Shown here: positions 1,487 through 25,432 of the stretch, piece by piece | How the letters are laid out: each line of letters starts with the position of its first letter | How positions within the stretch are numbered: position 1 is the stretch's first letter | Source of the DNA: Haliotis cracherodii | Lineage: Eukaryota | Assembly: GCF_022045235.1 (NCBI RefSeq) | Contig: NW_027266319.1 | Coordinates: 434,001-498,000 of the forward strand | Reading direction: 5' to 3' | Length of the DNA: 64,000 nt | The notes under the pieces: generated by a model | Seen by the model: only the letters and a program-made list of their open reading frames with translations | Told to the model about the DNA's origin: nothing | The model's database searches: none | Position numbers and translations under genes: made by a program

Positions 1487-1820
1487 TTTCCTCAATTTTC
1501 CAAATTTCAAACGCATTTTTTTCGATATGCTGACATTGTTCATCCAATGCACCAAGGCAACGATGCACATGTAGTAGATGTAACTTCCCATTGTATGTCT
1601 CGGACTCATGGGGGAAATGTGTGTGGGGGGACGGCTGTTTTGAGTATCTTTTCATTCGAATCGGACTCACAATAAAGCTCTGGTTGCGAAGCATTGGAAG
1701 CACTGGAGTATCGAGCATGGTTTGTGATAACCGAGAGTAGGAACCACCAGGCTAATCCACGTACAAACAGATTCCTGTTTATCGACCGTAATATTCAGCT
1801 TTGTTTTTATTGTTAAAGGA

Positions 1821-2098
1821 ACCGTTAAGATCCGGGGTAGAATAGGTCTTCAACAACCCATTCTTGTCGTTAAAGGCGACGATGCTTCTCGTAAGAGGCG
1901 ACTAACGGGATCAGGTGGTCAGGCTCGCTGACTTGGGTGATGCATGTCATCGTATTCCAATTGCGTGGATCGATGCTCATGATGTCAGTCACTGGATTGT
2001 CTGGTCCAAACTCCATTATTTACACACCGCCAGTATGTAGCTTGAATTTTGCTGAGTCCCGCGTTGAACAATAAATAGATAAAAAACAAAACAAACAA
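1821..2098 (+). mobile_element. SINE-like retroposon, family B (no tRNA head; (AAAC)n tail)
   Basis: Head ccgtgaagatccggggtagaataggtcttcagcaaccc-like, internal gtcgtaagaggcgactaacggg, tail gctggaatattgctgagtgcggcgttaaac(aaac)n. More than 12 copies, e.g. 8608-9012(-), 15193(+), 17497-17743(-), 24803-25015(-), 34030-34245(+), 34741(+), 39388-39655(-), 40451(+), 41031-41266(+). Confidence 0.8.
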
Positions 2099-2177
2099 TC
2101 TACTGCTAAAGTCATGACACAGTTGGGATCTCCCGTCGGATGAAGTCGTCACCTCAACGTCTCTGCGACATCAGAAG

Positions 2178-3316
2178 TCCCTGTTAGAAGACGCAGTAAC
2201 TGTTACAAGACACAGGCGCTGTTACAAGACACAGTCACTGTTACAACACGCAATCGCCGTTACAAGACGCAGTCACTGTTACAAGACGCAATCGCTGTTA
2301 CAAGACGCAATCGCTGTTACAAGAGGCAGTCCCTGTTACAAGACGCAGTCCCTGTTACAAGACGCAGTCACTGTTACAAGACGCAGTCCCTGTTAGAAGA
2401 CGCAGTCACTGTTACAAGACGCAGTCACTGTCACAAGACGCAGCCGTTGTTACAAGATTCAATCGTTGTTAGAAGACTCAATCGCTGTTAGAAGACTCAA
2501 TCGCTGTTAGAAGACTCAATCGCTGTTACAAGAGGCAGTCCCTGTTAGAAGACGCAATCTCTGTTACAAAAGGCAGTCCCTGTTAGAAGACGCAGTCACT
2601 GTTACAAGACGCAGTCACTGTCACAAGACGCAGCCGTTGTTACAAGACTCAATCGTTGTTAGAAGACTCAATCACTGTTACAAGACTCAATCGCTGTTAC
2701 AAGAGGCAGTCACTGTAACAAGACGCAGTCACTGTTACAAGAGGCAATCGCTGTTACAAGACACAGTCACTGTTAGAAGACTCAATCGCTGTTACAAGAC
2801 GCAGTCACTGTTACAAGAGTCAGTCCCTGTTAGAAGACGCAGTCACTGTTACAAGACGCAGCCGTTGTTACAAGACTCAATCGTTGTTAGAAGACGCAGT
2901 CACTGTTACAAGACGCAGTCACTGTAACAAGACGCATTCACTGTTACAAGAGGCAATCGCTGTTACAAGACACAGTCACTGTTAGAAGACTCAATCGCTG
3001 TTACAAGACGCAGTCACTGTTACAAGAGGCAGTCCCTGTTAGAAGACGCAGTCACTGTTACAAGACGCAGTCACTGTTACAAGACGCAATCGCTGTTACA
3101 AGACGCAATCGCTGTTACAAGAGGCAGTCCCTGTTAGAAGACGCAGTCACTGTTACAAGACGCAGTCACTGTTACAAGACGCAGTCACTGTAACAAGACG
3201 CAGCCGTTGTTACAAGACTCAATCGCTGTTTGAAGACGCAATCGCTGTTAGAAGACTCAATCGCTGTTAGAAGACACAATCGCTGTTAGAAGACGCAATC
3301 GCTGTTGGAAGACGCA
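2178..3316. repeat. minisatellite, ~19-20-bp unit (gtcactgttacaagacgca)
   Basis: Direct inspection; ORF 2637..2927 is a repeat artefact. Confidence 0.95.
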
Positions 3317-4654
3317 CGGCAATCAATCTTCCTCTGGAAATTGTCGCCATGTCAACATTGCCATATGTCGCACTACACTACTTCTTAACCTGTCATGATA
3401 AATCTGTTGCTAGGAGACGTCATGTCAGGATGTTTGTTCAACAGGTCATTTGAAGAAACAGGATGGTATTGTCCTGTCATTGGTCAATACACTGCCAGAA
3501 TCCAGCCAATCAGAAAGTCACACGTATGGTTAGCAAGATGTGAAAGACGTGTGGTTTATAGAAGATGTCACATGATGTTTAATTTGGGCCTCGAGAGACC
3601 GGATTTTGGTCCATAGTGTAGTAGGAATTGTCCAAAATATACCATCCGGGCACTCGAAACCCAAATAAAACATCATGTGACATCTCCCGGCAGTTTTCGG
3701 GTATATCCTCCATGAAATCTTCCATGAAACATTGATATAATTTCTATTTTGGTATATTGATATAGTTTCATTTTTCATATTCGGCTGTTCTCTTTATATA
3801 CGTTCGAATAGTTGTCCATCTCTCAGAAATAGAGTTAGTTTGGCCTTCGCTATCGCATCTCTTGGCTTCACGAGATCAAACATACTGATAGTTATACTGT
3901 TTCATTTATGAAGCCTTACGTCTCAATTAAATGGAGAAGGAAATCGATATCTTAATTCTAGTCATAGAGTTGGGGCACTGGCGCTGTCCTGAGTTGTCCT
4001 GAGTGAATAAGATTGCATATGATAGGTTTATCTTTAGTTTACAACTTAGACTGCCTTAGCTGCGTAGAGCGTCTCCTTAATTAGCCCTATATCCCCTATA
4101 GGGTCTCACGTGGCGTCTTCCACTGTATCGATACACTTCAGTGAACCCATGCTTCAGATCATCTGGGATCAGATTGACTCATGCGTTTATAGATCAGCTG
4201 GGAATAGTTTAGTTTAGGGCCTAAACCGTTGCAGCATGATTGAAATTGTTGCTGAAGATATCGGCAACATCAAAGAATGCCCGCTATGGTTGCCCGGATG
4301 TCCGGCTAGACGTTGTGCTGAAGGGTTCAGTCAGTGTTAGCAACGCACAACGTAACACCGCTTAATGTCAGCCGGCTCAACGTGAGCCATTTGTGTGAGA
4401 TAATGAAAGAGTAGCTCCCTATCTCTGTAATCATCCCCTTAGTCGTCGTCACCGAGAGACAGAACCAGTGTAGCAATCTGTACGCCGCTAGATGGCGGCT
4501 ATCATTGGTCACAGGTTAGGTTACGTCCGATCTTCAAAGCACAGGGACTGATTCTGGTTGTCTGGGTTCTGGTTTGTAGTCCTGTTTCCAACGTGTGTAG
4601 AACCTTTCATCACTGTATATCACCGTTATAAGGAAATGAGCACATGAATTTTAT

Positions 4655-4925
4655 GACCGCCTCCGTGGTCTAGTGGTAGAACTGAGAGCGGAGGGTCCGG
4701 GGTTCGATCACCGGCCGCGTCATACCAAAAGTCATTAAAAGATGGTACTTGTACTTACCCTGCCTGGCGCTCGGCATTAAGGGGCTAAAACAAGCACTGG
4801 TCGGCCCGGAGTCAGTATACTGTGTCTGAGTGGGGTATTAATGTTAAACTGCGGCATGGTATCTTAGTGGGGTATCGATATAAAATCGGCATTAGACGCG
4901 ACGTTAAACCCCATTTCACCTCACC
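4655..4925 (+). mobile_element. tRNA-derived SINE, family D (Meta-SINE-like body)
   Basis: Head gaccgcctccgtggtctagtggta...ggttcgatc, body gtcataccaaaag...ggcattaaggg...actggtcggc, tail gacgcgacgttaaac(cacct). Other copies 13733-14084, 16272-16590, 19215-19403(-), 33163-33395. Confidence 0.75.
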
Positions 4926-5271
4926 ACAAGAATTGTACAATCCTAACGATATCCCGAGCGATTAGTTGAAGGCTGATACCAGGTGTCATGAACAGGATGA
5001 CGTCGTTTTAAGCATTTCAGTCTTGCCGAGCCGGCGCCATCAGAATCCTTTCACTCGATGTACCCGAGTAACTCCATGCGTGACGACCAATCCAGGAAAC
5101 GACGAAAGCATTTCTTCAAAATAGTTTTTTTTTCTCAAAAGAACCTTTCTTCTTCTGCTGTTTTCAATGTTTTTTTAATCAAGGAAACTAGACTTGGTTT
5201 AGTTCGATCCCGACTTGCCTAAGATTTTATTAAAAAAAATGAATAAATATTCCACAGTCATGGCGCAGGAC

Positions 5272-8200
5272 TAACCTGACGACCAACACAGGAACACCAA
5301 CCCACCTGACGGCCAACCCAGGAACACATCCCACTTGACGAACAACCTAGGAACACCAACTCAATTGACAACTAGCCTAGAAACAAATCCCACTTGACGA
5401 CCAACCTAGGATCTCCACCCCACCTGACGGCCAACCCAGGGACACCAACCCACCTTACGGCCAACCCAGGAACACATCCCACTTGACGACCAACCCAGGA
5501 ACACATCCCACTTGACGACCAACCTAGGAACACCAACTCAATTGACGACTAACCTAGAAACACATCCCACTTGACGACCAACCGAGGAACTCCATCCCAC
5601 TTGACGACCAACCTAGGAACACATCCCACTTGACGACCAACCGAGGAACTCCATCCCACATGACAACCAACCTAGGAACACATCCGACTTGACGACCAAC
5701 ATTGGAACACATCCCACTTGACTACCAACCTAGGAACACATCCCACTTGACGACCAACCTAGGAACACATCCCACTTGACGACCAACCTAGGAACACCAT
5801 CCCACCTGACGACCAACCTAGGAACACATCCCACTTGACGACCAACCTTGGAACACATCCTACTTGACGACCAACCTAGGAACACATCCCACTTGACGAC
5901 CAACCTAGGAACAGCATCCTACTTGACGACCAACCTTGGAACACATCCCACTTAACGACCAAACTAGGAACACATCCCACTTGACGACCAACCTAGGAAC
6001 ACATCCCACTTGAAGACCAACCTAGGAACACATCACACTTGACGACCAACCTAGGAACAGCATCCCACTTGACGACCAACATAGGAACAGCATCCTTCTT
6101 GACGACCAACCTTGGAACACTTCCCACTTGAAGACCAACCTAGTAACTCCATCCCACATGACGACCAACCTAGGAACACATCTCCCTTGACGACCAACCT
6201 AGGAACACATCCCACTTGAAGACCAACCTAGGAACACATCCCACTTGACGACCAACCTAGGAACAGCATCACACTTGACGACCAACCTAGGAATACCAAC
6301 TCATTTGACAACTAACCTAGAAACACATCCCACATGACGACCAACCTAGGAACACATCTCACTTGACGACCAACCTAGGAACACATCCCACTTGAAGACC
6401 AACCTAGGAACACATCCCACTTGACGACCAACCTAGGAACAGCATCACACTTGACGACCAACCTAGGAATACCAACTCAATTGACAACTAACCTAGAAAC
6501 ACATCCCACTTGACGACCAACCTAGGAGCTCCATCCCACTTGACGACCAAACGAGGAACACATCCCACTTGACGGCCAACCCAGGAAGACCAACCCACTT
6601 GACGACCAACCAAGGAACACATCCCACCTGACGACCAACCGAGGAACACCAACTCACTTGACGACTAACCTAGAAACACATCCCACTTGACGACCAACCG
6701 AGGAACAGCATCCCACTTGACGACCAACCTAGGAACAGCATCCCACTTGACGACCAACCTAGGAACTCCATCCCACTTGGCGACCAGCCTAGGAACACAT
6801 CCCACTTGACGACCAACCTTGAAACAGCATCCCACTTGACGACCAACCTAGGAGCTCCATCCCACTTGGCGACCAACCTAGGAACACCATCCCACTTGAC
6901 GACCAACCGAGGAACACCATCCCACTTGACGACCAACCTTGGAACACATCCCACTTGACGACCAGCCTAGGAACACATCCCACTTGACTACCAACCTAGG
7001 AACTCCATGCCACTTGACGACCAACCTAGGAACACATCCCACTTGACGACCAACCTAGGAACTCCATCCCACTTGACGACCAACCTAGGAACACTATCCC
7101 ACTTGGCGACCAACCTAGGAACTCCATCCCACTTGGCGACCAACCCAGGAACACATCCCTCTTCGCGACCAACCTAGGAACACCATCCTACTTGACGACC
7201 AACCTAGGAACACCATCCCACTTGACGAACAACCCAGGAACAGCATCCCACTTGACGACCAACCCAGGAGCTCCACCCCACTTGGCGACCAACCTAGGAA
7301 CACATCCCACTTGACGACCAACCTAGGAACACATCCCACTTGACGACCAACCTAGAAACAGCATCCCACTTGATGACCAACCTAGGAGCTCCATCCCACT
7401 TGGCGACCAACCTAGGAACACCATCCCACTTGACGACCAACCTATGAACACCATCCCACTTGACGACCAACCTAGGAACACATCCCACTTGACGACCAGC
7501 CTAGGAACACATCCCACTTGCCGACCAACCTAGGAACTCCATCCCACTTGGCGACCAACCTAGGAACACCATCCCACTTGACGACCAACCTAGAAACAGC
7601 ATCCCACTTGATGACCAACCTAGGAGCTCCATCCCACTTGGCAACCAACCTAGGAACACCATCCCACTTGACGACCAACCTATGAACACCATCCCACTTG
7701 ACGACCAACCTAGGAACACATCCCACTTGACGACCAGCCTAGGAACACATCCCACTTGCCGACCAACCTAGGAACTCCATCCCACTTGGCGACCAACCTA
7801 GGAACACCATCCCACTTGACGACCAACCTAGGAACACATCCCACTTGACGACCAGCCTAGAAACATCCCACTTGACGACCAACCTAGGAACAGCATCCCA
7901 CTTGACGACCAACCTAGGAACTCCATCCCACTTGGCGACCAACCTAGGAACTCCATCCCACTTGGCGACCAACCCAGGAACACCATCCCACTTGACGACC
8001 AACCTAGGAACACATCCCACTTCACGACCAGCCTAGGAACACATCCCACTTCACGACCAACCTAGGAACAGCATCCCACTTGGCGACCAACCTAGGAACT
8101 CCATCCCACTTGGCGACCAACCCAGGAACACATCCCTGTTGGCGACCAGCCTAGGAACACATCCCACTTGACGACCAACCTAGGAACACATCCCACTTGA

Positions 8201-8480
8201 CGACCAACCTAGGAACAGCATCCCACTTGACGAACAACCGAGGAACAGCATCCCACTTGACGACCAACCTAGGAACACATCTCACTTGACGACAAACCTA
8301 GGAACACATCCCACTTGACGACAAACCTAGGAACACATCCCACTTGGCGACCAACCTAGGAACACATCCCACTTGGCGACCAACCTAGGAACACATCCCA
8401 CTGGGCGACCAACCTAGGAACATATCCCACTTGACGACCAACCTAGGAACACATCCCACTTGACGACTAACCTAGGAACC
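5272..8480. repeat. minisatellite, 29/30-bp unit (catcccacttgacgaccaacctaggaaca), ~3.2 kb
   Basis: Direct inspection; the MGCVPRLVVKWD ORFs are artefacts. Confidence 0.97.
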
Positions 8481-10296
8481 AAGTGAACACCCTCCGACTT
8501 TTACTTTGAGTACTCCCGTTCCAAGTGAAAAAGCCTTGATTAACGAATCATTGATTTTAGAAAGCATACTTTCCCGGTAGTATATATGCGTATATGTTCC
8601 GGGAACAAGTTTTGTTTGTTTAACTCCACACTCAGCAACATTCCAGCTATATGACGGCGGTCGGTAAATAATCGAGTCTGTACCAGACAATCCAGTGATT
8701 GTCATCATCAGGATGGATCCTCCCGATTGGGATACGATGACATGCACCAACCAAGTCAGCGAGCCCGACAAGCAGTCAGCCGCCTCTTACAAGTAGTGAG
8801 TGAGTGAGTGAGTATGATTTTACGCCGCTTTTAGCAATATTCCAGCAATATCACGGCGGGGGAAACCAGAAATGGGCTTTACACAATGTACCCATTTTGG
8901 GAATCGAACCCGGGTCGACGGCGTGACGAGGGATTGCTTTGACCACAAGGCTACCCGACCGCCCCTACAAGAATGGGCTGCTGAAAAACAAATGTAACCC
9001 GCATCTTCACGGAGTCAAATCTTTCTGAAGACGAGGTATCACCCGTTTCACAAGATCGCGAGAGATAGGGAGTGTCCCTATCGGTCAATGGCGCTGCGTA
9101 TCATAAGGATACTGTCGAGACCAAAACCTAAGTAAACACGCTGCATGTGGCGACAAGGACAAAATTAAACAATAAAAACTCTCAGTGTCCATGAATCATC
9201 CAGACCTCTTAGATGTTTATTTATTTGTACTTGCGAACGAATATGACCTTGGAACCTCTGCACTGACCTTGGTAGCAGCAACCCCATGAATCATAGTTAC
9301 GTCATGGGAACCTCCCACCAAATAGGGCGTATCATGTGACACGCGACAGATGCACGTGGACGTTTGTCTAATTAAAATCTCAAATTAGCATACGGTGACG
9401 ATGTGAGATTACCCGGCCCTGCCAGACGCCATCTGTCGGGGGAGTGGGGAGTAGTGGGTCTCGCGCCGACTCACTGTACATACTGAAGTCACAGCCCGCC
9501 ACGTGATGTCGCGAGATTTCAGTTAGAGGGCACGGTTTACGACATGTCGTTGTCGACAAAGCAACAATGTTTATGCGTCACATGTGACGTCATTCATCAA
9601 ATATCAGAGGTCCAGTCATCTTTTGTCGATTTCAAACTGTCAATATGTTTCCGACTGGATTCCGTTTCCTCGTGGTCCTTCTTTTGTTTCCGCGTGTTTC
9701 ATGAGTCACAAATGTGATATTAAAAGGCAACAACACTTCATCCTCAAAAGTTTGAAATATGGATGGCTTTTTCTTCGCGGATTCAAAGTTTGCTTATTAT
9801 GGACTAGCATTTTGACTGTGTGACTTGTGTCCAGCGCTAACGGACATTGGGTGACCTTTGGTGTACACGGGGATAAATAGGTCACTGCAGAGACCATATA
9901 ACGTCGGTGTGTGGTCTCTGGTCACTAGTATCCCATGGTTGTCGCAAAAGCCGACAAATGACAGTGTGTTGATTGTGTGTGACGTCACCGTGTCACGACG
10001 GCGTGGAACGTTGCTCATGACATCAACCTCTAGCTTGCCTGACCCATGAACTGCTGACTGCGGCGTGAAACAACATGGACTCAGCTTATTTCGAGGCACT
10101 GGTTATTTCGAATATACACATGTTGTCTCCCTTTAGATCTGAGACTGAAAGAATGAGTGCTGTGTAATGCCGCAGAACTTCAAGGCTATCACGGTGCGTC
10201 ACTCGACGTGGGAGGGGTGTCAGGGAGCACGGGAATGACGGACGTGACCAGGGCGAACCGAGTTTGGTTCGAATCCACGATCCCAGGTTTTTGTTA

Positions 10297-10752
10297 CGCG
10301 TGAAGATCCGGGGTAGAATAGGTCTTCAGCAACCCATGCTTGTCCCCCGTGAAGATCCGGGGTAGAAGAGGTCTTCAGCAACCCACGCTTGTCCCCCGTG
10401 AAGATCCGGGGTAGAATAGGTCTTCAGCAATCCATGCTTGTCTCCCCGTGAAGATGCGGGGTAGAACAGGTCTTCAGCAACCCATGCTTGTCTCCCCGTG
10501 AAGATGCGGGGTAGAATAGGTCTTCAGTAACCCATGCTTGCTGTAAAAGGCGACTATGCTTATTGTAAGAGGCGATTAACGGGATCGGGTGGTAAGACTC
10601 GCTGATTGGTTGATGCATGTCATCGTATCCCAATTGCGTGGATCGATGCTCATGATATCAATCACTGGATTCTCTGGACTATCGATTATTTAAAGACCGC
10701 TGACATATAGCTGGAATATTGTTGAGTGTGGTGTTAAACAACAAACAAACAA
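10297..10752 (+). mobile_element. family B element with its ~49-bp 5' module tandemly amplified five times
   Basis: cccgtgaagatccggggtagaataggtcttcagcaacccatgcttgt at ~10297, 10346, 10395, 10445, 10495; the last copy runs into the full element. Confidence 0.85.
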
Positions 10753-11304
10753 TAATGTTTTGTGGAGGCAGCGTGTCGTGTAAAATAGCAGAACAACCAT
10801 GGCATCATCTCGTGATTAGTTCGGCCAAATCGAAATTCATACACTATCATCGCCAACCCCCCTTAGTCTTGACTTCGTTAATCCGGAAATATCACCTTCT
10901 GGACGAATACTGCAGAGAACACTTCGTCCGGATAAACGACGTGTACTGTCCGTGACTTGTACATTACACGGTTTTGAACACGGCAATTCCTCAGCTGCAT
11001 AATATGTATAAGAATGTCAATTTTTCTAATATTTCAATATATGCTTCAAAAATGACCTTCGGCAAGTATTACCGTTACATTTTCAATATTCAATTATTAA
11101 AAATGTATTCTATGTTATTGGGATAAATAATGCAATGTATCTAATAGAGATTCGGCACAACGAACGTGCCACTCTGGTCGATCAATATAGTGGTGTAACA
11201 TACACATATGCGTGGGTGTATCACTGACGTGATGAGCGACATGACAACAACATCATCTGTTTCAGGTGTGTCACAGCCATTGCGGGTCTGATTGCAGTAT
11301 GGAA

Positions 11305-11540
11305 TACTGTAAGGGACATTCTCGACCTTGCGAGATTTTATATCATGTCCAATTCTCGCGTTGTCGACTTTTGACAAAAAGTACACGAGAATGCGAGATC
11401 ACGAGAACGAGAGATTTTGGCCCAAACTCGCGTTCTCGCTATCTCGCACTCTCACACTTTTGGCATTTATTTAGCTCGTTTCCAAAGGTCGAGATCGCGA
11501 GAATGCGAGAAAGCGAGATCGCGAGAATGTCCCTTACAGT
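11305..11540. mobile_element. MITE with TIR tactgtaagggacattctcg
   Basis: Perfect ~20-bp inverted termini ending in TA; second copy at ~17975-18231. Confidence 0.75.
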
Positions 11541-11816
11541 ATTGAATAATGCAGCCCGTCTCTCAGAATGTCCACAAGTAACAAGTGCTACCCTGGTTCT
11601 CATTTTGACCACTCTATGTATGACTGTGTTGAATATACGGTGCCGGGAAAACGGACACAATCTTAGACGTCCAGAAGATGCATGATGTATCTTGGATTTT
11701 GTGCCTTGATTTCTATTTACTTAAATGGTTATTTTGATATTTTTTGAGGATCATCTGTTGTTTCATTGAATGTGAATTTATCTCTCCAGCTGGCGGTCGT
11801 TTTATTGACCCTTTGA

Positions 11817-11953
11817 NNNNNNNNNNNNNNNNNNNNNNNNNNNNNNNNNNNNNNNNNNNNNNNNNNNNNNNNNNNNNNNNNNNNNNNNNNNNNNNNNNNN
11901 NNNNNNNNNNNNNNNNNNNNNNNNNNNNNNNNNNNNNNNNNNNNNNNNNNNNN
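11817..11953. other. assembly gap (137 N)
   Basis: Run of N. Confidence 1.
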
Positions 11954-12730
11954 CGACCGTGTTTACGTTTCTGTGCATCACTCGTACTGTGAAAATCTGT
12001 TGTGATGCACTGGTATCGTGATGTCCGCCATGTGCATTGAGGACTGCCGTGCAACGTCGATACATGGAATGGATGAGGCGGTTGATGAAGGCCATAGGCA
12101 CTTGAGCCCACACTCCGAGGAACGCCTGACGCAGTTCAGCTGCAGTTGTCGGCCTTGGTCGGACGTCATTTAGCCGCCTTTGAATCTCCTCCCACAGGTG
12201 CTCAGTTGGATTTAAATCGAGACTGAGGACAGGCCACTGCATGGTTCTGATGCCATTCTGCTGGAGGAAGTCTCTTGTTGCTCTCGCAGTGTGGGCACGG
12301 GGGTTATCATGCTGAAACTCGTGGTTGCGGGGACGTGCCAAATGAGGTATGGCGTGTGGTCTCAAGACTTGGTCAATGTACCGAGCTGCTGTGACACCAT
12401 TGCCTCTCCCTGGACCGATGTTCTGGAAGACCACAGGGCCGACTCTCTGTGCAACACCAATTCCACCCTCCACCATGATGCTTGGACCACCCCACGAGTC
12501 TCTCTCATCAACACAAGCATCCGAATAACGTTCCCCACGGCGTCGCCAGACTCTGTCTCTTCCATCTGCTGTTGAGATACAGTAACGGCTCTTGTCTGAG
12601 AAGAGGACTCATCTCCACTGCTGGTGGCGCCAATGCTGGTGCTGTGTTGCCCACTGAAGACGGCCCCGGCGATGACGTGGTGTCAGAATGGGTTCTCTGT
12701 GTGGCCTGTGACAGTGGAGGTGTCTGCTCG
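11954..12730 (-). mobile_element. Tc1-family DD34E transposase remnant (pseudogene)
   Basis: QWR*VLFSDKS...VWRRRGERY...IMV, FQHDNPRAHTAR, WPVLSLDLNPTEHLW motifs; internal stop; N-terminal HTH missing. Confidence 0.9.
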
Positions 12731-13732
12731 TCAAAGTGAAATGGTCGTGGCCGTGATACGTTTGGGCGATCAGTTTTATTGTCATTGTTTTTTTATCATC
12801 AAATTTATTTTTTCCGGACAAGGTAATGTTAAATTTGAGAGAGTTTGGCAAAAATTGCCCAGATATTTAAATGACAACTTTTCATGCAATGTTACTTGGG
12901 GTGACGTATCTATTGCGGTTCAGTATAGTTTCAAAGCTAACTTCTCATGCCGACAAACGAACACGGGAACCGTTTTAAAAGGCAACGTTTTGCCCATGTC
13001 GAAAACACTCCTAAATATTCACTCCATAACGCCGCACCTAAGTGTGTTTGACCCTATGTTACAAGATTCGTATCCTCATATGACGTAAATGCTGAACGAG
13101 TTTCTTATGTGTCAGAATGATTTACTGCAACACCATGGGACAAACAACATGCGCTTTACACAAAACAAACAAACAAAAATGCAAATGATGTAGCTTTTCG
13201 TGCATGTATTGCCATTAGATATTTGCAACGCATCTACAGTTCGGTCAATTCCTCCTAATATGTTGAAAACAATTGCAAGTTTATGGTGTAAATATAGTTT
13301 TAAATGTTTAGGTATTTTTTCACGAGCAGAAACACACCGTCAAAACGTTCCGACTCAGGGTATGTGTGGTGGTTGATAGTTAGAGGGACATGTGCGTTGA
13401 TTGTTTAAATCTTTTTCCGTTTCAAAAATTTAAATGACATAAAAAAACAGAAGGTTTGGGGAAAAAGTTATTTAACATTTCAAATAAAGTGCATATATAG
13501 TGCAGTAGTTTTAGTGGAAACAGTAATATCACTAATTAACAGAATCATACGAATCTGGATGAAGACTGTTTTCCACGTGTCAGTCATCTGGCGAGAGGCT
13601 GCAGATGGTAAAACAACAAATGTAAACTACGGGTTGTACCTGAGTATAAATTGTAATAATTTTTTAAATTTTTTTTTCTTAATCAAATCATTTTGTTGAC
13701 AACAAACAGCCTATGTATAGCTGTGGGAACAG

Positions 13733-14084
13733 GACCGCCTCCGTGGTCTAATGGTAGAGCGTCCGCCCGGAGAGCGGAAGGTCCGGGCTTCGATCCCCGA
13801 CCGCGTCACACCAAAAGACGTTAAAAGATGGTACTTGTTGTTACCCTGTCTGGCGCTCGGCATTAAGGGGCGAAAACAAGGACTGGTCGGCTCGGAGTCA
13901 GTATACTGTGTCTGAGTGGGGTATTCATATTAAACTGCGGCATGGTATCTCAGTGAGCTAGCACTATAAATCGGCATCAGTCCGGACTAGTACAAGGAGC
14001 CACACAAACACACACACGTACATGCACGTCGCTATATAAGTGCAATAATCTTGGACGCGACGTTAAACACCATTTCACCTCACC
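13733..14084 (+). mobile_element. family D SINE, full-length copy
   Basis: A/B boxes, Meta-like body, gctatataag...gacgcgacgttaaac tail. Confidence 0.8.
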
Positions 14085-15384
14085 TGTAAGAAAAGAGCCC
14101 CACTTTGTGTGCTGTGCAGCCATTTCTGTATGAAGGGCACCAGACATCATGACAATCCTCCCAATACCTATCATGGCAAACTAGGGATCTGTCCTGGATT
14201 GACATGATGTACACCTTGTCCAAAAACATCTGGGGAATATGTAATCATGACCACTGATTTTAAACCTTCCGGGAGAAAAGAGGTACAAAGTATCAAAGCA
14301 CAAATAGTACATGCTGATACAGTAACGTAATTTACAAATGTGCTTGGTAAATACATTCCAAATAAAGATTTTCTATAATATGTTCCTACGAACTATTTTT
14401 CTCCATGGCGGCAATACTGGATTTGGCGGCCATATTGTATTTTTAGGAAGCTCCAATATTTCAAAATATTTGAAATGCTATGACTTACACAACCTATTTT
14501 AATTTACATGTAATTTCAGTTAGTTACCTTGAAAGATATGCATATTCCGAGAAAGTAAGGCCTTAAATTAGTGGTTGCGGCCATCTTGTAAATGGCTTTT
14601 TTGATCGGAATTTTCTAATTGCATCCATATCTAAAATTGATGGTAATACCGATATCTATCATCAAGCCAAGTTTCATGCGTTTATCACAAAGTGCACCAT
14701 TTACCTTTAGCAGCCTTGAAGGGGCGAGTCCCGAGCCCGTGGGTTCTCAGGTGACGATGCTGTGCAGCAAAGTGACGGTCATCTATTGTAGAGCAATGCT
14801 GCCATATATGGACTAAATAACCACCATCAGCTTTCAAAATTATTGCGCGTGTCCATGGAAAGAACACCATGCTTGTGTCCCTTTCAAGGTGACGCCATTG
14901 GTTCACAGTGAATGCCCCGCCCCCAGAATAAGCCACACCCACTCAGTCAGTCTGCTGAACGAGAGCGCTGTTAAATGTTCCAGGAAGTATTGTGTGAGGC
15001 TCACAAATGAAATATTGTACCCTGATTGGCTCTGACTACTTTCATATCTGATGTTTTTTCCGTGATTTCCGTCATATTTCCCCCCATCATGGACATCTCA
15101 CAATAAAAAAATAACCACTGGTAGAAATACACTGTGAAGCCACATTTTATTATCTGCAGCTGGTTGCTGTTATATCTTTATATATATCTGAATCCGTGAA
15201 GATCCCGGTAAAAATAGGTCCTCAGCAACCCATGCCTGCTGTAAAAGGAAACTATGCTTGTCGTTAGAAGTTGATGCATGTCATTGTCTCCAATTTGTAT
15301 AGATCGATGCTTATGATGTCAATCACTGGATCACTTTTCATCATTCACAGGTACACGTAAGCTATCCATTTTTTGTGATCAGAT

Positions 15385-15850
15385 TGGGATTGCGTTGTCT
15401 ACAATGTGATGAACGCCTAAGGGACATTTCCGTTCTTCAAACTGGTAGAACTCGGCGAGAGGGATCCAATGTGTACAATGTGTCTCAGTCTCTGATTTGC
15501 AGACTTGGGGACAGGTTGCTGCAGACACAATATGTTAATGCTCGGCCCCGCACAGGGCACTAGAGGTCAACAACACAAGTACAGAACGGATTAATCAGAA
15601 GCCGGGCTTTAAGAAATCAAGCCCAAACAGCCAATCAAATCGCTGCTCACTTGCTGTTTCCAGCCAGACGCCAGTGGAGTTCAGAGCGTAGAAACTTGGG
15701 AGATCGCCGATGGTCTCGTGTAATGATTTCAGATGAGTCCATATTCACCCTGGACTTTCTGGAAAGACGTGGGCGTGTCTGGAGACAATGGCCAGCCATG
15801 ACCCTTCCCCCATAGATCACGTCTTGGACACGACGCATACACCGACGTCA
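15385..15850 (+). mobile_element. second, heavily decayed Tc1 transposase (HTH plus first catalytic Asp region)
   Basis: NVSQSLICRL...ARPRTGH*RSTT...IRSRALRN (Tc1 HTH linker), WSRVMISDESIF...GRVWR, QWPA; stops and deletions. Confidence 0.7.
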
Positions 15851-16271
15851 AAGGCCATGCTTTTGTTCACTGTGTTCCGAACCTGTGCTGTCGGCATATT
15901 TTATATAATTTTTTGCACGTGCATTTCCGGCGTTCTTAGAGTGCAAACGACGTTTTCACAACATTTACTTTTTCACGCTTTATTTGACCAATACCTTTCG
16001 TTGTATTTGTGCGACATATTTCACCTCGATTTCATTTCTCTGTGGTTTTGTAAATTTATAATGTAATTAAAGAGAATTCCGATTCCTATGTCAAACAATC
16101 TATGAATTGCACAAATGAAAATACATTTTTATTTGTTATATATTAGATCTGTGCTTTATAATTGTATAAATGTCCTTTGTCAATATGGTATATAATCCTT
16201 TCAAAAATATATCTGTCTGGGTAGTTCAAATCAGACGCGCTCAGAGACATGGACATCACGTTAATATACAT

Positions 16272-16590
16272 GACCGTCTCCGTGGTCTAGTGGTAGAGCG
16301 TCCGCCCGGAGAGCGGAAGGTCCGGGCTTCGATCCCCGTCCCGTCATACCAAAAGACGTTTAAAGATGGTACTTGTTGTTACCCTGTCTGGCGCTCGGCA
16401 TTAAGGGGTTAAAGCAAGGACTGGTCGGCTCGGTGTCAGTATACTGTGTCTGAGTGGGGTATTCATGTTAAACTGCGGCATGGTATCTCATAAATCGGCA
16501 TCAGTCCGGTCTAGTACAAGCAGCCACACACACAAACGCTATATAAGTGCAATAATCTTGGACGCGACGTTAAACCTAATTTCACATCAC
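16272..16590 (+). mobile_element. family D SINE inserted just upstream of lysozyme copy 1 ATG
   Basis: TSD cgttaat(a/c)tacat at 16259-16271 and 16591-16603. Confidence 0.88.
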
Positions 16591-16628
16591 CGTTAATCTA
16601 CATACTTGTGTTGTTGGTTACTGTGACC

Positions 16629-19600
16629 ATGGAACTGACAACAACTCTCCTCAGTCTGATGCTCGTGGCCTCTGTGACGGGTATGTCGCATGCTGTTCGT
16701 GAAGACCCCAGGTTCCCACCTCGCACATGTCCTCATCGTCGCACAAGTCCCCATCGTCGCACGTGTCCCAATCGTCGCAGCACATGTCCCCATCGTCGCA
16801 CATGTCCCCATCGTCACAGCACATGTCCCCATCGTCGCACATGTCCTCATCGTCACACATGCCCCCATCGTCACAGCACATGTCCCCATCGTCACAGCAC
16901 ATGTCCCCATCGTCGCACATGTCCCCATCGTCGCACGTGTCCCCATCGTCGCATATGCCCACATCGTCGCACATGTCCCCATCGTCGCACATGCCCCCAT
17001 CGTCGCACATGTCCCCATCGTCGCACATGTTCCCATCGTCACAGCACATGTCCCCATCGTCGCACGTGTCCCCATCGTCGCACATGTCCCCATCGTCACA
17101 GCACATGTCCCCATCGTCGCACATGTCCCCATCGTCGCACATGTCCCCATCGTCGCACGTCGTCGTGAGGCTCACCTGATCTCTTCCGCCTTGTTCCTTA
17201 TATAGAATAATTATACACAGGGGTGTGCATGGCGTCTGCCGAGTCAAGCTTCAACACGGCGGCAACCAACACCAACAGCGGAGGCTCCACCGACTACGGC
17301 ATCGTCCAGATCAACAGCTACTGGAACTGCGACCCCCAGGACGGAAGACAGACCTACAATGGCTGCGGACATCCTTGCTCCGGTAAAAATTCCAATCTGT
17401 TTTCTTAATAGTCAGATATAAATGTGTCTTCTCAAAAGATAGAGTAACATGCAGATCTAAGTTCAGAATTTAACGGGGCGGTGGGAAACACCAGGTGGTT
17501 GTTGGTTGGTTTGTTGTTTAACGCCTCACTCAGCAATATTCCAGCTATATGACGGCGGTCTGTAAGTAATCGAGTCCAGACAATCCAGTGATTGATCCAC
17601 GCAATTGGGATCGATGACATGCATCAACCAAGTCAGCGAGCCTGACAACCCGATCCCGTTAGTCGCCTCTTACGTCAAGCATTGTCGCCTTTTACAGCAA
17701 GTATGGGTTGCTAAAGATCTGTTCTACCCCGAATCTTCACGGGTCGTGGATATGCCACGGGTTAAAGCGTTTGCTCGTCACGCCGAAGAGCCGGGTTGGG
17801 TTCGATTTCCCACATGGGTAGAATGTGTGAAGCCTATTCCAGGTGTCCCCTTCCGTGATATTTCTGGTATATTGCTAAGAAGACGTAAAACCATCCTTAC
17901 TCACTCACTCACCCACTCACTTAAACCCTTAACAAGCGTATGTTTGCTTAGAAACATGTTTTTCTATGCAATATGTTAAGGGACATTCTCGCATTCTCCG
18001 TTCTCGCATCTCGACCTTGAGATACAAGGTATTGTGCCCAAAGAGCGAGAATACATTCTCGAGTTTTCGTCAAACGACGAGAACGCAAGAACACGACTTT
18101 TGGGCATCGTGTAAAATCTAGCAATTTCGACTTTTGAGAGTTTGTCAAAAAAAAACACGTGTTCACGAGATTTTTAGCATGTTTCCAAAGAGATTTTTAG
18201 CTTGTTTCGCACTCGAGAATGTTCTTTACAGTGTTCCATAGTTTCTACCGCTAATACACACCTATATTCACTTTAAATGTTATCTTTGGTTTGCCTACGA
18301 TCTGTGTCACGTTTTGTACCAGATTCACGAAAGTTTATCTATTTCTGTTACAATAGGTAGATATATCCTTTTATCAACACACCAAGTGGTGCCGCTCGCA
18401 GTCACGTGACTGCCGATCCTCAGTCGGATTGTAACCACGTGATCAAAACATATGCAGTTGTCTATATTTCGAAATTTGCGATATTTCGTGTTTCTATTTC
18501 AAGTGTCGAGGACTATAAGATATATGCACACATGCGTGATGAAAATAATTATGAAAGTTAATAATTTAACAAAATATTTTTATTGTGTAATTCAGACTAC
18601 CTGAACACAGCCCTCGGCGACGACATCCAGTGCATCCGACAGCTCCTTCACGAACACAGCGGCTGGGGCTTCTCGTGAGTAGAACAGACCACAGACTGCC
18701 ATGACAGCATGGCGTTATACTGAATATATACTGTCATGACAGCATGGCGTTATACTGAATATATACTGTCATGACAGAATGGCGTTATACTGAATATATA
18801 CTGTCATGACAGCATGGCGTTATACTGAATATATACTGCCACGACAGCATGGCGTTATACTGAATATAAAATGCCATGACAGAATGGCGTTATACTGAAT
18901 ATATACTGCCATGACAGCATGGCGTTATACGGAATATACACTGCCATGACAGCATGGCGTTATACTGAATATATACTGCCATAGCAGCATGGCGTTATAC
19001 TAAATCTATACTGCCATGACAGCATGGCGTTATACTGAATATACACTGCCATGGCAGCATGGCGTTATACTGAATATATACTGCCATGACAGCATGCCGT
19101 AATACTGAATATATACTCGTATAACGAGTCTGAATGTTCACAGTCGCAGTCATATGAGGAACAGCTCTACTACCTACATCTTGAGGTGGGGGAAATGGGG
19201 TTTGCATGCATGTTTGTGTGTGTGGCCTCTTGTACTAGTCCCGACTAATGCCGTTATTATAGTGCTAGCCCACTGAGATACCATGCCGCAGTTTAACAGG
19301 AATACCCTCTCCTTGTTTTAGTCCCTTAACAACAAGTACCATCGAGTATCGTCTTTTGGTAGGACGCGGCCGGAGGTCTAACCACCAGACCACGGAGGCA
19401 GTCAGCCAGCGACTTGAAGTCATGCGTGTGTCAGCTGACAGCACGGCCAGCGACTTGAAGTCATGCATGTTTCAGCTGACAGCACGGCCAGCGACTTGAA
19501 GTCATGCATGTTTCAGCTGACAGCACGGCCAGCGACTTGAAGTCATGCATGTTTCAGCTGACAGCACCGCCAGCGACTTGAAGTCATGCGTGTGTCAGCT

Positions 19601-20701
19601 GACAGCACGGCCAGCGACTTGAAGTCATGCATGTGTCAGCTGACAGCACGGCCAGCGACTTGAAGTCATGCATGTTTCAGCTGACAGCACGGCCAGCGAC
19701 TTGAAGTCATGCGTGTGTCAGCTGACAGCACGACCAGCGACTTGAAGTCATGCATGTTTCAGCTGACAGCACGGCCAGCAACTTGAAGTCATGCATGTTT
19801 CAGCTGACAGCACGACCAGCGACTTGAAGTCATGCATGTTTCAGCTGACAGCACGGCCAGCGACTTGAAGTCATGCGTGTGTCAGCTGACAGCACGGCCA
19901 GCGACTTGAAGTCATGCATATTTCAGCTGACAGCACGGCCAGCGACTTGAAGTCATGCATGTTTCAGCTTACAGCACGGCCAGCGGCTTGAAGTCATGCA
20001 TGTTTCAGCTGACAGCACGGCCAGCGACTTGAAGTCATGCGTGTGTAAGCTGACAGCACGGCCAGGGACTTGAAGTCATGCATGTTTCAGCTGACGGCAC
20101 TGCCGCCCCGTGTACATCCGGGTTTCAAAAGTCCTTCAGCAACCTGTGCTTGTCGTAAGATGTGACGAACGCAGGTCCTTGTATCCTAATTTCTTAGATC
20201 GATGCTCATTATGACAATCATCGGATTGTCTGGTCCAGACTCAATTATGTAGAGACCGCTGGCATGTAGCTGGCGGCTTTACACAAACAAACAAACAAAA
20301 CCACAAGACACAAATGAAAGCACGCTCCTATAACTCCAGGCGTGTGTCCAACTCAATACCCCATGTTCCCTGAAAACAGTAACAAATGTTTCATGAAGCC
20401 TTTGTTGTGAAAACATAATACTGGTTTTAGTTTCATACTATGTTTGTTTTCTACTTATATGTTGCAGAAATATTTAAACTGAAATGTGCCATATTCTCAT
20501 TCCTAATTCTGAAGGTGACACATGTACGCTTCATGACAGTATGTAGGTACTTGCATCAACAGATAGGTATGCTACAACAATTCTTTGCGCCGTGTTGATC
20601 CCCTGGATCAAAGCTATCTTGTCATGTTTTGTTTCAGGTACGGATACGCTGACAAGTGTGCCTCGGTGACCAGCAGCTATCTGTCCGAGTGTTCCTTGTA
20701 A
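16629..20701 (+). CDS. LYZ: c-type lysozyme paralog 1, lacking the 84-nt second coding exon (in-frame 118-aa product or pseudogene)
   Basis: join(16629..16680,17221..17382,18596..18674,20638..20701), all [122 protein letters not shown]. Exon lengths 52/162/79/64 match copy 2. ATTAAA at 20761. Confidence 0.85.
16720..17160. repeat. 18/21-bp minisatellite (cacatgtccccatcgtcg) in lysozyme 1 first coding intron
   Basis: Direct inspection. Confidence 0.95.
17221..17382 (+). CDS. LYZ: lysozyme 1 catalytic exon (Glu35 and Asp52 equivalents)
   Basis: cag|GG...G|gtaaaa; AES and [10 protein letters not shown] motifs. Confidence 0.93.
18697..19113. repeat. 35-bp minisatellite (ctgccatgacagcatggcgttatactgaatatata)
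   Basis: Starts ~22 nt after the donor at 18675; contains the hairpin gccatg-acag-catggc. Confidence 0.95.
19405..20100. repeat. 41-bp minisatellite (gccagcgacttgaagtcatgcatgtttcagctgacagcacg)
   Basis: About 17 copies. Confidence 0.95.
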
Positions 20702-20886
20702 TCTGTCATCCGGGCACCTCACGTCTAGGACAGACAGACCCCGTGTGTTTAATAATACCAATTAAATCGAGTGTCGTGTTCGTCTTATCAGTAGTTAACA
20801 CATTAGTTGTCTTTGTATTGGATGACGATCACGTGAGGGAGAACGCATGAACACGACACTGTCCCGGATATAACTGTTAGCGTGAG

Positions 20887-21925
20887 GTGATGTTCCTAGT
20901 GTTAACATATGGGTACAGTGATGTTCCTAGTGTTAACATATGGGTACAGTGATGTTCCTAGTGTTAACATATTGGCACAGTGATGTTCCTAGTGTTAACA
21001 TATTGGTACAGTGATGTTCCTAGTGTTAACATATGGGTACAGTGATGTTCCTAGTGTTAACATATGGGTACAGTGATGTTCCTAGTGTTAACATATTGGT
21101 ACAGTGATGTTCCTAGTGTTAACATATTGGTACAGTGATGTTCCTAGTGTTAACATATTGGTACAGTGATGTTCCTAGTGTTAACATATTGGTACAGTGA
21201 TGTTCCTAGTGTTAACATATTGGTACAGTGATGTTCCTAGTGTTAACATATGGGTACAGTGATGTTCCTAGTGTTAACATAGTGGTATAGTGATGTTCCT
21301 AGTGTTAACTTATGGGTACAGTGATGTTCCTAGTGTTAACATATTGGTATAGTGATGTTCCTAGTGTTAACATATTGGTACAGTGATGTTCCTAGTGTTA
21401 ACATATTGGTACAGTGATGTTCCTTGTGTTAACATATTGGTACAGTGATGTTCCTAGTGTTAACATATGGGTACAGTGATGTTCCTAGTGTTAACATATT
21501 GGTACAGTGATGTTCCTAGTGTTAACATATTGGTACAGTGATGTTCCTAGTGTTAACATATGGGTACAGTGATGTTCCTAGTGTTAACATATTGGTATAG
21601 TGATGTTCCTAGTGTTAACATATTGGTACAGTGATGTTTCTAGTGTTAACATATTGGTACAGTGATGTTCCTAGTGTTAACATATTGGTACAGTGATGTT
21701 CCTAGTGTTAATATATTGGTACAGTGATGTTCCTAGTGTTAACATATTGGTACAGTGATGTTCCTAGTGTTAATATATTGGTAGAGTGATGTTCCTAGTG
21801 TTAACATATTGGTACAGTGATGTTCCTAGTGTTAATATATTGGTACAGTGATGTTCCTAGTGTTAATATATTGGTACAGTGATGTTCCTAGTGTTAATAT
21901 ATTGGTACACTGATGATTCTAGTGA
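20887..21925. repeat. 31-bp minisatellite (gtgatgttcctagtgttaacatattggtaca)
   Basis: About 33 near-identical copies. Confidence 0.97.
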
Positions 21926-21933
21926 TGTCTGTA

Positions 21934-22702
21934 GTCACTGACTAGGTCATACTAGGGGGTGTAACACACTCGCCGTCACTGTCTTGGTCATACTAGGGGG
22001 TGTAACACACGTGCCGTCACTGACTAGGTCATACTAGGGGGTGTAACACACGTGCCGTCACTGACTAGGTCATACTAGGGGGTGTAACACACGTGCCGTC
22101 ACTGACTAGGTCACACTAGGGGATGTAACACACTTGCCGTCACCATCTAGGTCATACTAGGGGGTGTTACACACATGCAGTCACTGACTAGGTCATACTA
22201 GGGGGTGTAACACACTTGCCGTCACTGTTTAGGTCATACTAGGGGGCGTAACACACGTGCCGTCACTGACTAGGTCACACTAGGGGATGCAACACACTTG
22301 CCGTCACTGTCTAGGTCATACTAGGGGGTGTTACACACATGCAGTCACTGACTAGGTCATACTAGAGGGTGTAGCACACTCGCCGTCACTGACTAGGTCA
22401 TACTAGGGGATGTAACACAATCGCCGTCACTCTCTAGGTCATACTAGGGGGTGTAACACACTTGCCGTCACTGACTAGATCATACTAGGGGGTGTAACAC
22501 ACTCGCCGTCACTGACTAGGTCATACTAGGGGGCTGTAACACACGTACCGTCACTGACTAGGTCATGCTATGGGGTGTAACACACTCGCCGTCACTGACT
22601 AGGTCATGCTAGGGGGTGTAACACACTTGCCGTCACTGACTAGGTCATACTATGGGGTGTAACACACTGGCCGTCACTGACTAGGTCATACTAGGGGGTG
22701 TA
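21934..22702. repeat. 41-bp minisatellite (gtcactgactaggtcatactagggggtgtaacacacgtgcc)
   Basis: About 18 copies, abutting the 31-bp array. Confidence 0.95.
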
Positions 22703-24280
22703 CCATTATAGGAAAAATAACGCATGTTTTATCCACTTGTTACTGAGTGAGTTTGGTTTTAGCAGTATTCCAGCAATATCCCGGCGGGGGACACCAGAAA
22801 TGTATCGCTTTCTCGCGTTATCGCTCTATCGCTTTCTGGCTTTCTCGCGGTTAAGCAATATCCCCTCTTGACCACTATGGGGGCCGCATGTGATATCTGC
22901 TGCAATTGGGAGGTAATGTTGAACTTTTCTCACTATTTACTTAAAACATAATTTAACTGTACAGACGTAGGTGATTTTATGTATGACACATATTTTTTTC
23001 CCGAATTTAATTGCCCATAATTAAGTGTGCATATAACGCACGAGTGCGTATTATACGCGAATAAATAAGTCTTGCGTACATTAATCAATCGGAAGGGGTG
23101 TTAATTGTGATTGTTCACCAGCCAATATATTAGCAAATATCGCCGTGGGCGTTTATTAGAGCGGGGCGCTTATTACGTCGAATACGTTCATTATACTTTG
23201 CATTTATGTCTCAGAAATGACTGTTGATAAGACTGAACACTTTGAATAGCGAAAATACCAACTTGAATATAAAACCAATCAACTATTTTTTTCCACATTA
23301 CCGTTACTGAGAACAATATGTCATCCAAAAACTAGAAATTACATATTGGACATCCGGTAGTATTACCATTGCCTGGTAGAGGACTTCCACTTTGATGACA
23401 TCTACTCCGCAAACAGAATAAACATTGATATAAGCCTTGTTTTTAGGAAATACTATTGTTTTTTAGGAAGAACGTACTACTCAGCGCTATTGAGCGGTGT
23501 TATTTGCTATTTGTTTTGATAACTTGGCCCGGGGGCGGGGGATCTAATAGCTAAATGTGGCCATAAATCAATCAAATCTTTTTTACGCAGAAATGCGTGG
23601 ATTGTTATAAATAGAGGATATTTAATGTGTTTTCTCAAATACCACTTTGAAGTCGGGAGAGTCTAATATTTTCACGAGTGACGCAGTTCTTTATGGTCAA
23701 TTAACTCCCTTGCCTCGGGAAGATGCAGTAAGCAGGAGCAGCAACTAGTTAATACAGCAAATTAAATATGAAGTTATAACTCGCATGTTCAACAGTCGGA
23801 GTATCATTATTTTCCCCTTTTGGCTGCCGACTGCGAACGCCGACGTTGAGAACAAGGGCCCGGACTTATTCATACCAGCTTGTACCAGGTTTTGTAATAA
23901 GTTTTCTTATAAGTACCTGTTGAGCATTTATTCGCTTGTGCCACGTGTAATGCAAATTACGTTTGTGATGTTCTTGTTTATTTGTTTATGTGTTTATCAA
24001 TAAGCTATATTATCCCGGAATTTGGATTACACAATATTTTCTCAGTTAGGCTCACGGACAGTAATTTCTCGTATACCCTTGACTGTGTTTAGGTCATGTT
24101 AACACTGTCCCAGCACAGTGCTCCTGTCTCATACGAGGGAGTCAACAGTATTCAGTATTCCATACTTAATGGTGCTGAAACAGGATGTTTTTCGCCCCGG
24201 TAACACGTGAACTGTCTGTTAAAAAAACCAACTTCCTATTTTGTTTTAAGCTTTTCGTAGAATTGATATGTTTTTAAATG

Positions 24281-24393
24281 CACGTGGTTCCTGGTGAGAC
24301 GGAAGTGTGTGACCTACTGTGACCCGGGGGCGGGTATATAAACTCGCGCCAACACCCGGCGTCAATCTTCATTATACTCCACTACAGGTAAGT
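24281..24393 (+). promoter_or_regulatory. core promoter and non-coding first exon of lysozyme 2
   Basis: E-box cacgtg 24281, ETS-like cggaagt ~24300, GC box ggggcggg directly before TATATAAA 24335-24342, Inr-like tcatt ~24369, strong donor cag|gtaagt at 24388 matching acceptor ccag| at 25430. Confidence 0.7.
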
Positions 24394-24410
24394 TACACTT
24401 ATTACTGTGC

Positions 24411-24689
24411 GGGGCACGGGTGGCCCAGTCGTCTAAGGCGCCGCAATTCGCTGTGCAGAGCTTCGTCCCACGTCAGAAACCCTATGATTGTGGTTTCGAA
24501 TCCCGGTTCGCCCCGATTGTGTTTCTAGGTTTGTCAGCACCATACCCGTGCTCGTGGGTTTCACCAAAGTGGTAAACGTCTGACACCTGCATCACTTCGG
24601 GCTTTCCTCCCACATTAAGCTGACACACCGTGATATAACTGGAATACTGTTAAAAGTGGCGTTAAACCCAACTCACTCACTCACTCACT
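24411..24689 (+). mobile_element. tRNA(Leu/Ser-like)-headed SINE, family C, in lysozyme 2 intron 1
   Basis: tggcccagtcgtctaaggcgc...ggttcgaatccc-like head, (actc)n tail, TSD tac(t/a)gtg. Other copies 31467-32310 (chimeric) and 53968-54225 (TSD tatctctgtagt). Confidence 0.8.
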
Positions 24690-25432
24690 ACTACAGTGAC
24701 GTGTCTAGGATATGTAGGTTACGTTGCTTAACCTATTCATGTGTAAATATATTTTGAATTTGTAATTTTAAGGTCCAACACCCTGTCGGGATCTCGTGTC
24801 AGTTTTGTTTGTTTGTTTATTGTTTAACGCCGCACTCAGCAATATTCCAGCTTTTTGACGTCGGTTTGTAAATAATCGAGTCAGGACCAGACAATTCAGT
24901 GACTGACATCATGGGCATCGGTCTTCACAATTGGGATACGATGACATGCGTCAACAAAGTCAGCGAGCCTGACCACCTGATCCCGTCGTCGCCTCTAACG
25001 ATACGTAGAGTTGCTCACCGTTGCGCAAACACCTGGTATCATCACTATTTTACAGTGATTCATAAATACATGCTCATGATATAGTCGGAATCGTACAATT
25101 GACTCCATTTTTGGGCAGAGATTTGTGTATTAATATACTGCGGGGCGGTGGGGTAGCCTACTGGTTAAAGCGTTCGCCCCGGATCCGGATTCGATTCCCG
25201 ACATGGGCTCAATATTTGAAGCTCATTTCTGTTGTCCCCCGCCATGACATTGCTGGAATATTGCTAAAAGCGGCGTTAAACCATACTCACTCACTCACTC
25301 ACTAATTAAAAATGACATCTGAGATTCTGTTTTAATCCACATTAAACCTACCTCTCTATCATTTAACGACTCAAGACGTGACAATGCTCTGTTCCACACA
25401 ACACACAAGTATTGTTTTGTCTTCTACCAGGA

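Follow-up and report, generated by a model that had tools for sequence, protein, structure and literature searches.

Two tandem lysozyme genes in the black abalone

The stretch of DNA analysed here, referred to throughout as the window, comprises 64,000 nucleotides (nt) from the black abalone, Haliotis cracherodii, and carries two tandem genes for c-type lysozymes, both on the + strand. The downstream gene (copy 2) is intact; its splice acceptor lies 2 nt upstream of the ATG, and its protein is identical to the RefSeq entry XP_071082233.1, lysozyme c-1-like, of the same species. The upstream gene (copy 1), which lacks one of the exons expected of such a gene, is the main subject of this report. 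A preliminary description of the DNA had given it four coding exons equal in length to their counterparts in copy 2 (52/162/79/64 nt), with GT-AG introns and no stops, and this was borne out by our reading of the exons: GT donors and AG acceptors are intact at all six inner splice sites, and the joined exons form a frame of 357 nt for 118 amino acids (aa) with no internal stop (Table 1). Joining the exons also reproduced the G|GG joint, the 118-aa frame and the seven cysteines described (at positions 20, 54, 66, 70, 84, 105 and 116), the splice and its product being conceptual and read from the genomic sequence.

By sequence comparison, copy 1 is orthologous to an old gene, abalone lysozyme C2 (LysC2), and not a fresh duplicate of copy 2 (LysC1). 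It is identical at 110 of 118 positions to the 144-aa protein XP_046337939.1 of H. rufescens and at 107 of 117 to chicken-type lysozyme 2 of H. discus discus (AGQ50331.1), as against 84 of 118 for copy 2 and a range of 77–86 of 117–118 for the C1-type proteins; in a tree of 14 rows, the seven C1 rows split off at 98/97 and the three C2 rows were grouped at 88/81. Copy 1 shares with the two abalone LysC2 proteins the signal exon, exons 3 to 5 and the catalytic Glu and Asp, but is without the 26 codons of exon 2, which hold the cleavage site, helix A, Cys6 and Trp28, and has seven rather than eight cysteines. It further differs from them by replacements of Phe by Val, Arg by His and Pro by Gln, and by a splice acceptor that is likely lost. 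The two abalone lysozyme genes have reportedly been described by Umasuthan et al. in 2013.

In the protein searches, H. asinina and H. diversicolor returned C1-type protein only, C2 being seen in H. discus discus, in H. rufescens and at this locus. An H. rubra record of 118 aa (P0017) was considered as a further case of the same exon join and rejected: the model is partial and its N-terminus unrelated.

Copy 1 already has an entry in the public annotation: RefSeq XP_071082564.1 (‘lysozyme C-3-like’, Haliotis cracherodii, 98 aa) is an exact suffix of the 118-aa frame and begins at an internal Met of copy 1, under a name that hints at neither the deletion, the orthology to C2 nor pseudogene status. 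This public model matches the Pfam family PF00062 with 70 bits (cut-off 27) over positions 32–123 of the 123-position profile, as compared with 1–123 for the intact orthologue.

Table 1. Features of the two lysozyme genes, with positions counted from the first letter of the window.
Feature	Position	Strand	Remarks
Short interspersed nuclear element (SINE)-like repeat	16272-16591	+	Flanked by 12-nt direct repeats, 16260-16271 and 16592-16603 (11/12 alike)
Copy 1, likely lost acceptor of first coding exon	16611-16616	+	TTGTTG in the window, TTTCAG in a relative (organism B)
Copy 1, first coding exon (signal peptide, phase-1 donor)	16629-16680	+	52 nt
Copy 1, left breakpoint of deletion	16720-16722	.	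At or shortly before 16722; 2-nt TC overlap at the joint
Locus-specific 18-nt minisatellite, 23 copies	16721-17158	+	33-nt probe: 4 genome matches, all here
Copy 1, exon 3 (Glu35 and Asp52 equivalents kept; invariant Phe to Val at 17304)	17221-17382	+	162 nt
Copy 1, TATAAG word (18514) and intron-3 stretch from 18543, likely internal transcription start	18514-18595	+	From the end of the X7 contig
Copy 1, exon 4	18596-18674	+	79 nt
Copy 1, exon 5 and stop codon (Cys127 equivalent left without its partner)	20638-20701	+	64 nt; ATTAAA at 20761
Copy 2, TATA box and likely non-coding first exon	24335-24387	+	Sole TATA-plus-donor pair found in 1-16600 and 20800-25432
Copy 2, intact LysC1	25433-29892	+	5 coding exons, 146 aa, 8 Cys
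Copy 2, coding exons	25433-25484, 25635-25718, 28379-28540, 29062-29140, 29829-29892	+	52/84/162/79/64 nt

Deletion of exon 2 from LysC2

Since copy 1 is orthologous to C2, the exon it has lost is one of 26 codons (78 nt), as given by the difference between the 144 aa of the H. rufescens orthologue and the 118 aa of copy 1, and not the 84-nt (28-codon) exon of copy 2. The preliminary description, according to which an 84-nt exon was gone from the 540-nt intron at 16681-17220, was therefore right about the absence and mistaken about the size, the exon that it quoted being the paralogue’s; its statement that this intron is mostly minisatellite agrees with the 23-copy array of an 18-nt unit found there. 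No remnant of exon 2 was found in the 540 nt, where a local alignment with the copy 2 exon scored 29.0 (shuffles: mean 28.1, maximum 42.0). A tblastn search of the window with the exon-2 peptide of the orthologue returned the copy 2 exon only (E 4.8e-4; other rows at E of at least 1.2), and a back-translated pattern for C2 exon 2 had no match in the whole genome at one mismatch, the same kind of pattern for copy 2 exon 2 recovering that exon as a control. Matches in the genome to PF00062 and to exon-3 DNA number two each, in both cases within the window, and no whole C2 copy was found elsewhere in the genome by the queries used. Protein searches of the genome (five matches for XP_046337939.1, none for a 30-aa exon-2 peptide) were too blunt to speak for absence, as they also missed exon 1 and exon 2 of copy 2.

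To place the junction in other animals, use was made of a run search that returned 21 sequencing runs, eight of them same-species DNA; two of these eight (X3 from study P1 and X5 from study P2) and one DNA run from organism B (X8) were compared with the window over 16570-16762. X3 (depth 7.1) and X5 (depth 35.2) each gave one 246-nt contig that covers all 193 nt with no differences, passing from exon 1 through the unique start of the intron into the array; neither shows a loose end at 16722. They represent different samples, studies and years, and either is flagged as a possible source of the assembly, which at most one of them can be. The contig of organism B (520 nt, depth 23.7) tracks the window up to 16722 with 11 differences in 153 nt, and the four that are listed include no mismatch within 16629-16680. 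Past 16722 it continues for at least 255 letters unlike the window, the first 30 of which have no match in this genome at up to three mismatches. Organism B has the same minisatellite on other contigs, where the 42-nt block that opens the window’s array has a further unit before it.

The deletion of exon 2 is real, with the same junction and no other in both of the same-species DNA runs compared. Of intron 1, the first 40 nt remain and now abut the minisatellite; the left breakpoint lies in unique sequence that borders the array, and independent contigs bridge it with at least 31 letters on each side. The minisatellite is likely to be the right part of an older, longer array of the ancestral intron 2; the deletion would then have begun some 40 nt into intron 1 and ended within that array, the break perhaps arising by slippage or end-joining into its middle. 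The array itself varies among samples: X5 has unit orders absent from the window at about half depth (12–16 versus 35), X3 and X8 have others, and it is likely a length-polymorphic marker.

Splice acceptor, transcripts and predicted product

A likely second lesion lies upstream. Three adjacent differences at 16613-16615, all in the one contig of organism B, set TTTCAG in that organism against TTGTTG in the window, and both X3 and X5 read as the window does. TTTCAG is a canonical acceptor sequence that follows a pyrimidine-rich run 12 nt ahead of the ATG, and no AG occurs between 16548 and the ATG of copy 1. It is likely that TTTCAG is the used acceptor of the first coding exon of C2 and that copy 1 has lost it. 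We infer that C2 shares the layout of copy 2, with an upstream non-coding exon, in which case the first coding exon of copy 1 could no longer be spliced in and the exon for the signal peptide would be skipped; loss of the acceptor would account for the start of the public model at an internal Met.

The SINE-like repeat ahead of this site has four further copies in the window (75–87% identity) and holds a TATA-like word at 16540. Since organism B also has its tail, the repeat is older than both lesions, and it was rejected as the cause of silencing.

Transcript evidence comes from run X7 of the same species and run X15 of another organism, the RNA labels of both being guesses. A contig of X15 reaches exon 3 exactly at 17221 and has 79 more letters upstream, which fits a whole transcript in that organism. 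The X7 contig (161 nt, depth 293.5) matches 18543-18676 with no differences and then leaves the window. It begins 53 nt inside intron 3, 29 nt after the TATAAG word and with no AG at 18542-18543, and exits at the exon-4 donor plus two letters common to intron 4 and exon 5, with 27 further letters; its ends point to an internal transcription start and a splice to exon 5. Unlike this contig, that of X15 starts, by bin depth, at about the exon edge. RNA of the X7 form would have no ATG in the lysozyme frame, the sole ATG upstream of exon 4 opening a 17-codon frame out of register. The contig suggests that such RNA outweighs the normal join of exons 3 and 4 in that sample, contigs showing neither starts nor levels; X7 coverage on exons 1 and 3 was absent among the filtered records, so these holes prove nothing.

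Alignment to bird lysozyme places the lost segment at residues 1–28, including Cys6 and Trp28, with Glu35, Asp52 and Cys127 kept, and in a model of the intact orthologue (mean predicted local distance difference test score, pLDDT, of 73.4; about 90 over residues 21–50) the segment corresponds to helix 25–34 and the first turn of helix 41–52. The alignment and the model together uphold the earlier statement that the cleavage site, helix A, Trp28 and Cys6 are gone while Glu35 and Asp52 are retained. As regards the features of c-type lysozymes, copy 1 keeps the catalytic pair but fails on the eight cysteines and four disulfides (Cys6-Cys127 is gone) and on the complete alpha domain, and for these reasons copy 1, a descendant of that family, was not filed as a working c-type lysozyme.

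Among the residues that remain, the Val encoded at 17304 replaces a Phe (at the position of bird Leu56) that is found in both orthologues and in all eight other mollusc rows, and the exon-3 contigs of three relatives (X13, X14 and X15) all have T at 17304, giving a Phe codon. A His in copy 1 replaces an Arg kept in seven of the eight mollusc rows. By the bird alignment and human numbering, the Phe position probably corresponds to that of human F57. The human F57I variant is reported to have its melting midpoint lowered from 79.2 to 60.4 °C, and in flies to be degraded and not secreted (PMC3250245). Any 118-aa product, without helix A and the Cys6-Cys127 bridge and with Phe replaced by Val, is predicted to misfold. 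The 98-aa protein folded alone gave a mean pLDDT of 38.6, which is uninformative without an alignment.

Elsewhere, the window is dense in minisatellites (58 rows). Copy 1 has arrays in introns 1 and 4, and copy 2 in introns 2 and 4; these arrays are unrelated to each other, and the introns of the two copies are not alignable except for common interspersed repeats. A 41-nt minisatellite on the - strand (21934-22702) aligns weakly with copy 2 exon 2 and its flanks (56.0 versus a shuffle maximum of 47.5; 41.5 versus a maximum of 41.0 for the exon alone), a likeness probably due to chance aided by periodicity. Two mobile-element remnants were seen, both on the - strand: a Tc1/mariner-like one 4 kb upstream of copy 1 (11960-12608), with a DDE_3 transposase match (PF13358, E 1.1e-10) in a frame that runs into the N stretch at 11817-11953, and a retroelement at 62130-62546 with integrase zinc-binding (PF17921, E 2.5e-6) and core (PF00665, E 1.7e-4) matches. 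A G+C-richer unique stretch at 9480-9720, with the word TGACGTCA, looks by eye like a promoter for some other transcript.

Status and significance of LysC2 in the black abalone

The best explanation is that copy 1 is LysC2 with its 78-nt exon 2 deleted, most likely a young pseudogene that is common or fixed in the species and gives no working lysozyme, a reading to which we assign a probability of about 80%. The finding of the junction in both X3 and X5, together with the divergence of the relative at 16722, supports one of the options put forward in the preliminary description, that of a deletion allele or pseudogene. What output remains would be at best a 98-aa product without signal peptide, or a non-coding RNA from the internal start, and the loss of C2 would be covered by its intact neighbour C1. 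Because the lost exon is of phase 1-1, the frame of copy 1 is kept open without any need of selection; loss of a symmetric exon preserves the frame, and the open frame is therefore no sign of function.

A number of points weigh against this reading. The four exons carry neither stop nor frameshift, with all six inner splice sites intact, and the junction possibly recreates a signal-peptidase site after Gly18 by the crude (-3,-1) rule. Lineage-specific amino-acid changes number five in copy 1 and five in the intact copy 2, and two of the five in copy 1 are common to relatives (S67T in one X14 contig, V11M in X8); one change falls on the invariant Phe and one on the nearly invariant Arg. An accelerated protein rate in copy 1 was rejected by this copy 2 control, and relaxed selection is not shown by the change counts. 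Loss of the acceptor is likely, but the claim comes from one contig of one relative, and an upstream non-coding exon for copy 1 was not found in 1-16600 (137 N at 11817-11953 being unreadable). Either X3 or X5 may be the assembly’s own source, and the comparison covers two of the eight same-species DNA runs listed. If X7 is RNA, some transcription persists at the locus, with a depth of 293.5 on exon 4. The X7 word share (0.13) comes near the 0.152 expected from exon 3, whose records may have been filtered.

It is unlikely, in our judgement, that copy 1 works anew, with exon 1 spliced to exon 3 to give a secreted lysozyme that has no helix A and whose C-terminal Cys is free, maybe a disulfide dimer or a non-enzymatic binder. 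Such a gene would account for the open 118-aa frame, the intact donor and acceptor, the retention of Glu35 and Asp52, the possible new cleavage site and the presence of the deletion in both same-species samples compared, but the acceptor of the first coding exon is likely lost, Phe has given way to Val, the RefSeq model starts at an internal Met, and the abundant X7 contig runs unbroken from intron 3 into exon 4, bypassing the lysozyme frame; for the same reasons we found no support for the truncated, disulfide-dimerising product suggested earlier. A precedent might be sought in the clam Mya arenaria, where a RefSeq model beside three whole paralogues (XP_052762714.1, ‘lysozyme C-like’, 119 aa) has the signal peptide joined directly to the VCMA exon and is missing the same exon as copy 1. 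This model, however, is a separate lineage in the tree and known as a predicted model only; unlike copy 1 it also has Ser for the catalytic Asp (Asp52 equivalent), consistent with decay or with a gene model that passes over a broken exon; it may be a parallel loss or a model artefact.

About equally unlikely is that the locus survives only as a source of regulated non-coding RNA or of a short cytosolic product, kept for function, with the internal TATA driving exons 4 and 5. The X7 contig has a depth of 293.5, as against 4–7 for those covering the array and the intron ahead of exon 3, which would suit such a role; so would the TATAAG 29 nt upstream of its first base and its departure at the exon-4 donor once the two letters in common with exon 5 are counted. 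The contig nevertheless stems from one run of guessed RNA, and contigs show no start, strand or level; the only upstream ATG opens the out-of-register 17-codon frame, and transcription of a remnant does not indicate function.

A rare or private deletion allele, with the whole gene kept by most animals, appears more improbable still. The evidence consists of the assembly and two runs, one of them possibly its source, contigs drop rare variants, and X3 is shallow; yet neither X3 nor X5, which differ in study and year, branches at 16722, X5 follows a single path at depth 35.2 with array variants at 12–16, as for a homozygous junction, and further lesions are linked to the deletion. Least credible is that the animal does have exon 2 and that the assembly lost it by collapse between minisatellite copies, an option of the preliminary description that we reject: although the junction touches a tandem array that differs between samples and that no contig crosses, the left breakpoint is in unique sequence and both X3 and X5 bridge it, which makes collapse very unlikely, and the continuation of the relative X8 past this point is absent from this genome.

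As a pseudogene, copy 1 would have arisen by an ordinary mechanism, in which one duplicate decays and a symmetric exon can vanish in frame. Lineage-specific losses of lysozymes have been reported, including that of the g-type in aquatic mammals (PMC8449827) and pseudogenes of the mammalian family (PMC3141428). As these accounts present them, the mammalian losses resemble copy 1 in that one duplicate was lost in one lineage; unlike them, copy 1 is a c-type gene of a gastropod, with an in-frame exon deletion into a minisatellite, and its loss is so recent that the exons left to it are still open. In the literature on abalone lysozymes and lysozyme pseudogenes, as judged from listings and the starts of abstracts, we found no prior description of an exon loss or pseudogene of black abalone lysozyme C2. 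The deletion corrects the public model XP_071082564.1, which lists the remnant as a protein.

In an endangered species, the junction at 16722 marks an immune-gene lesion that is precisely placed and simple to type. An abalone c-type lysozyme is reported to have bacteriolytic activity and to be expressed mainly in the mantle (PMC3688608), and more than 90% of black abalone are reported lost to bacterial disease (PMC11518883). Modern and ancient black abalone genomes exist (PMC13229213); the word ‘lysozyme’ is absent from the main text and two supplementary files of that study, whose gene list is perhaps elsewhere. A speculative and rather doubtful suggestion is that the black abalone lost a lysozyme C2 that its congeners kept and express, and that this loss, either fixed or changing in frequency during the withering-syndrome die-off, contributed to the heavy toll on the species. 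Against a large role for the loss of C2, lysozyme C1 is intact next door, and the disease agent grows within gut epithelial cells. White abalone, moreover, is also described as highly susceptible (PMC6022723). If the loss of C2 did contribute to susceptibility, this would be checkable at the 16722 junction in modern and ancient-shell genomes.

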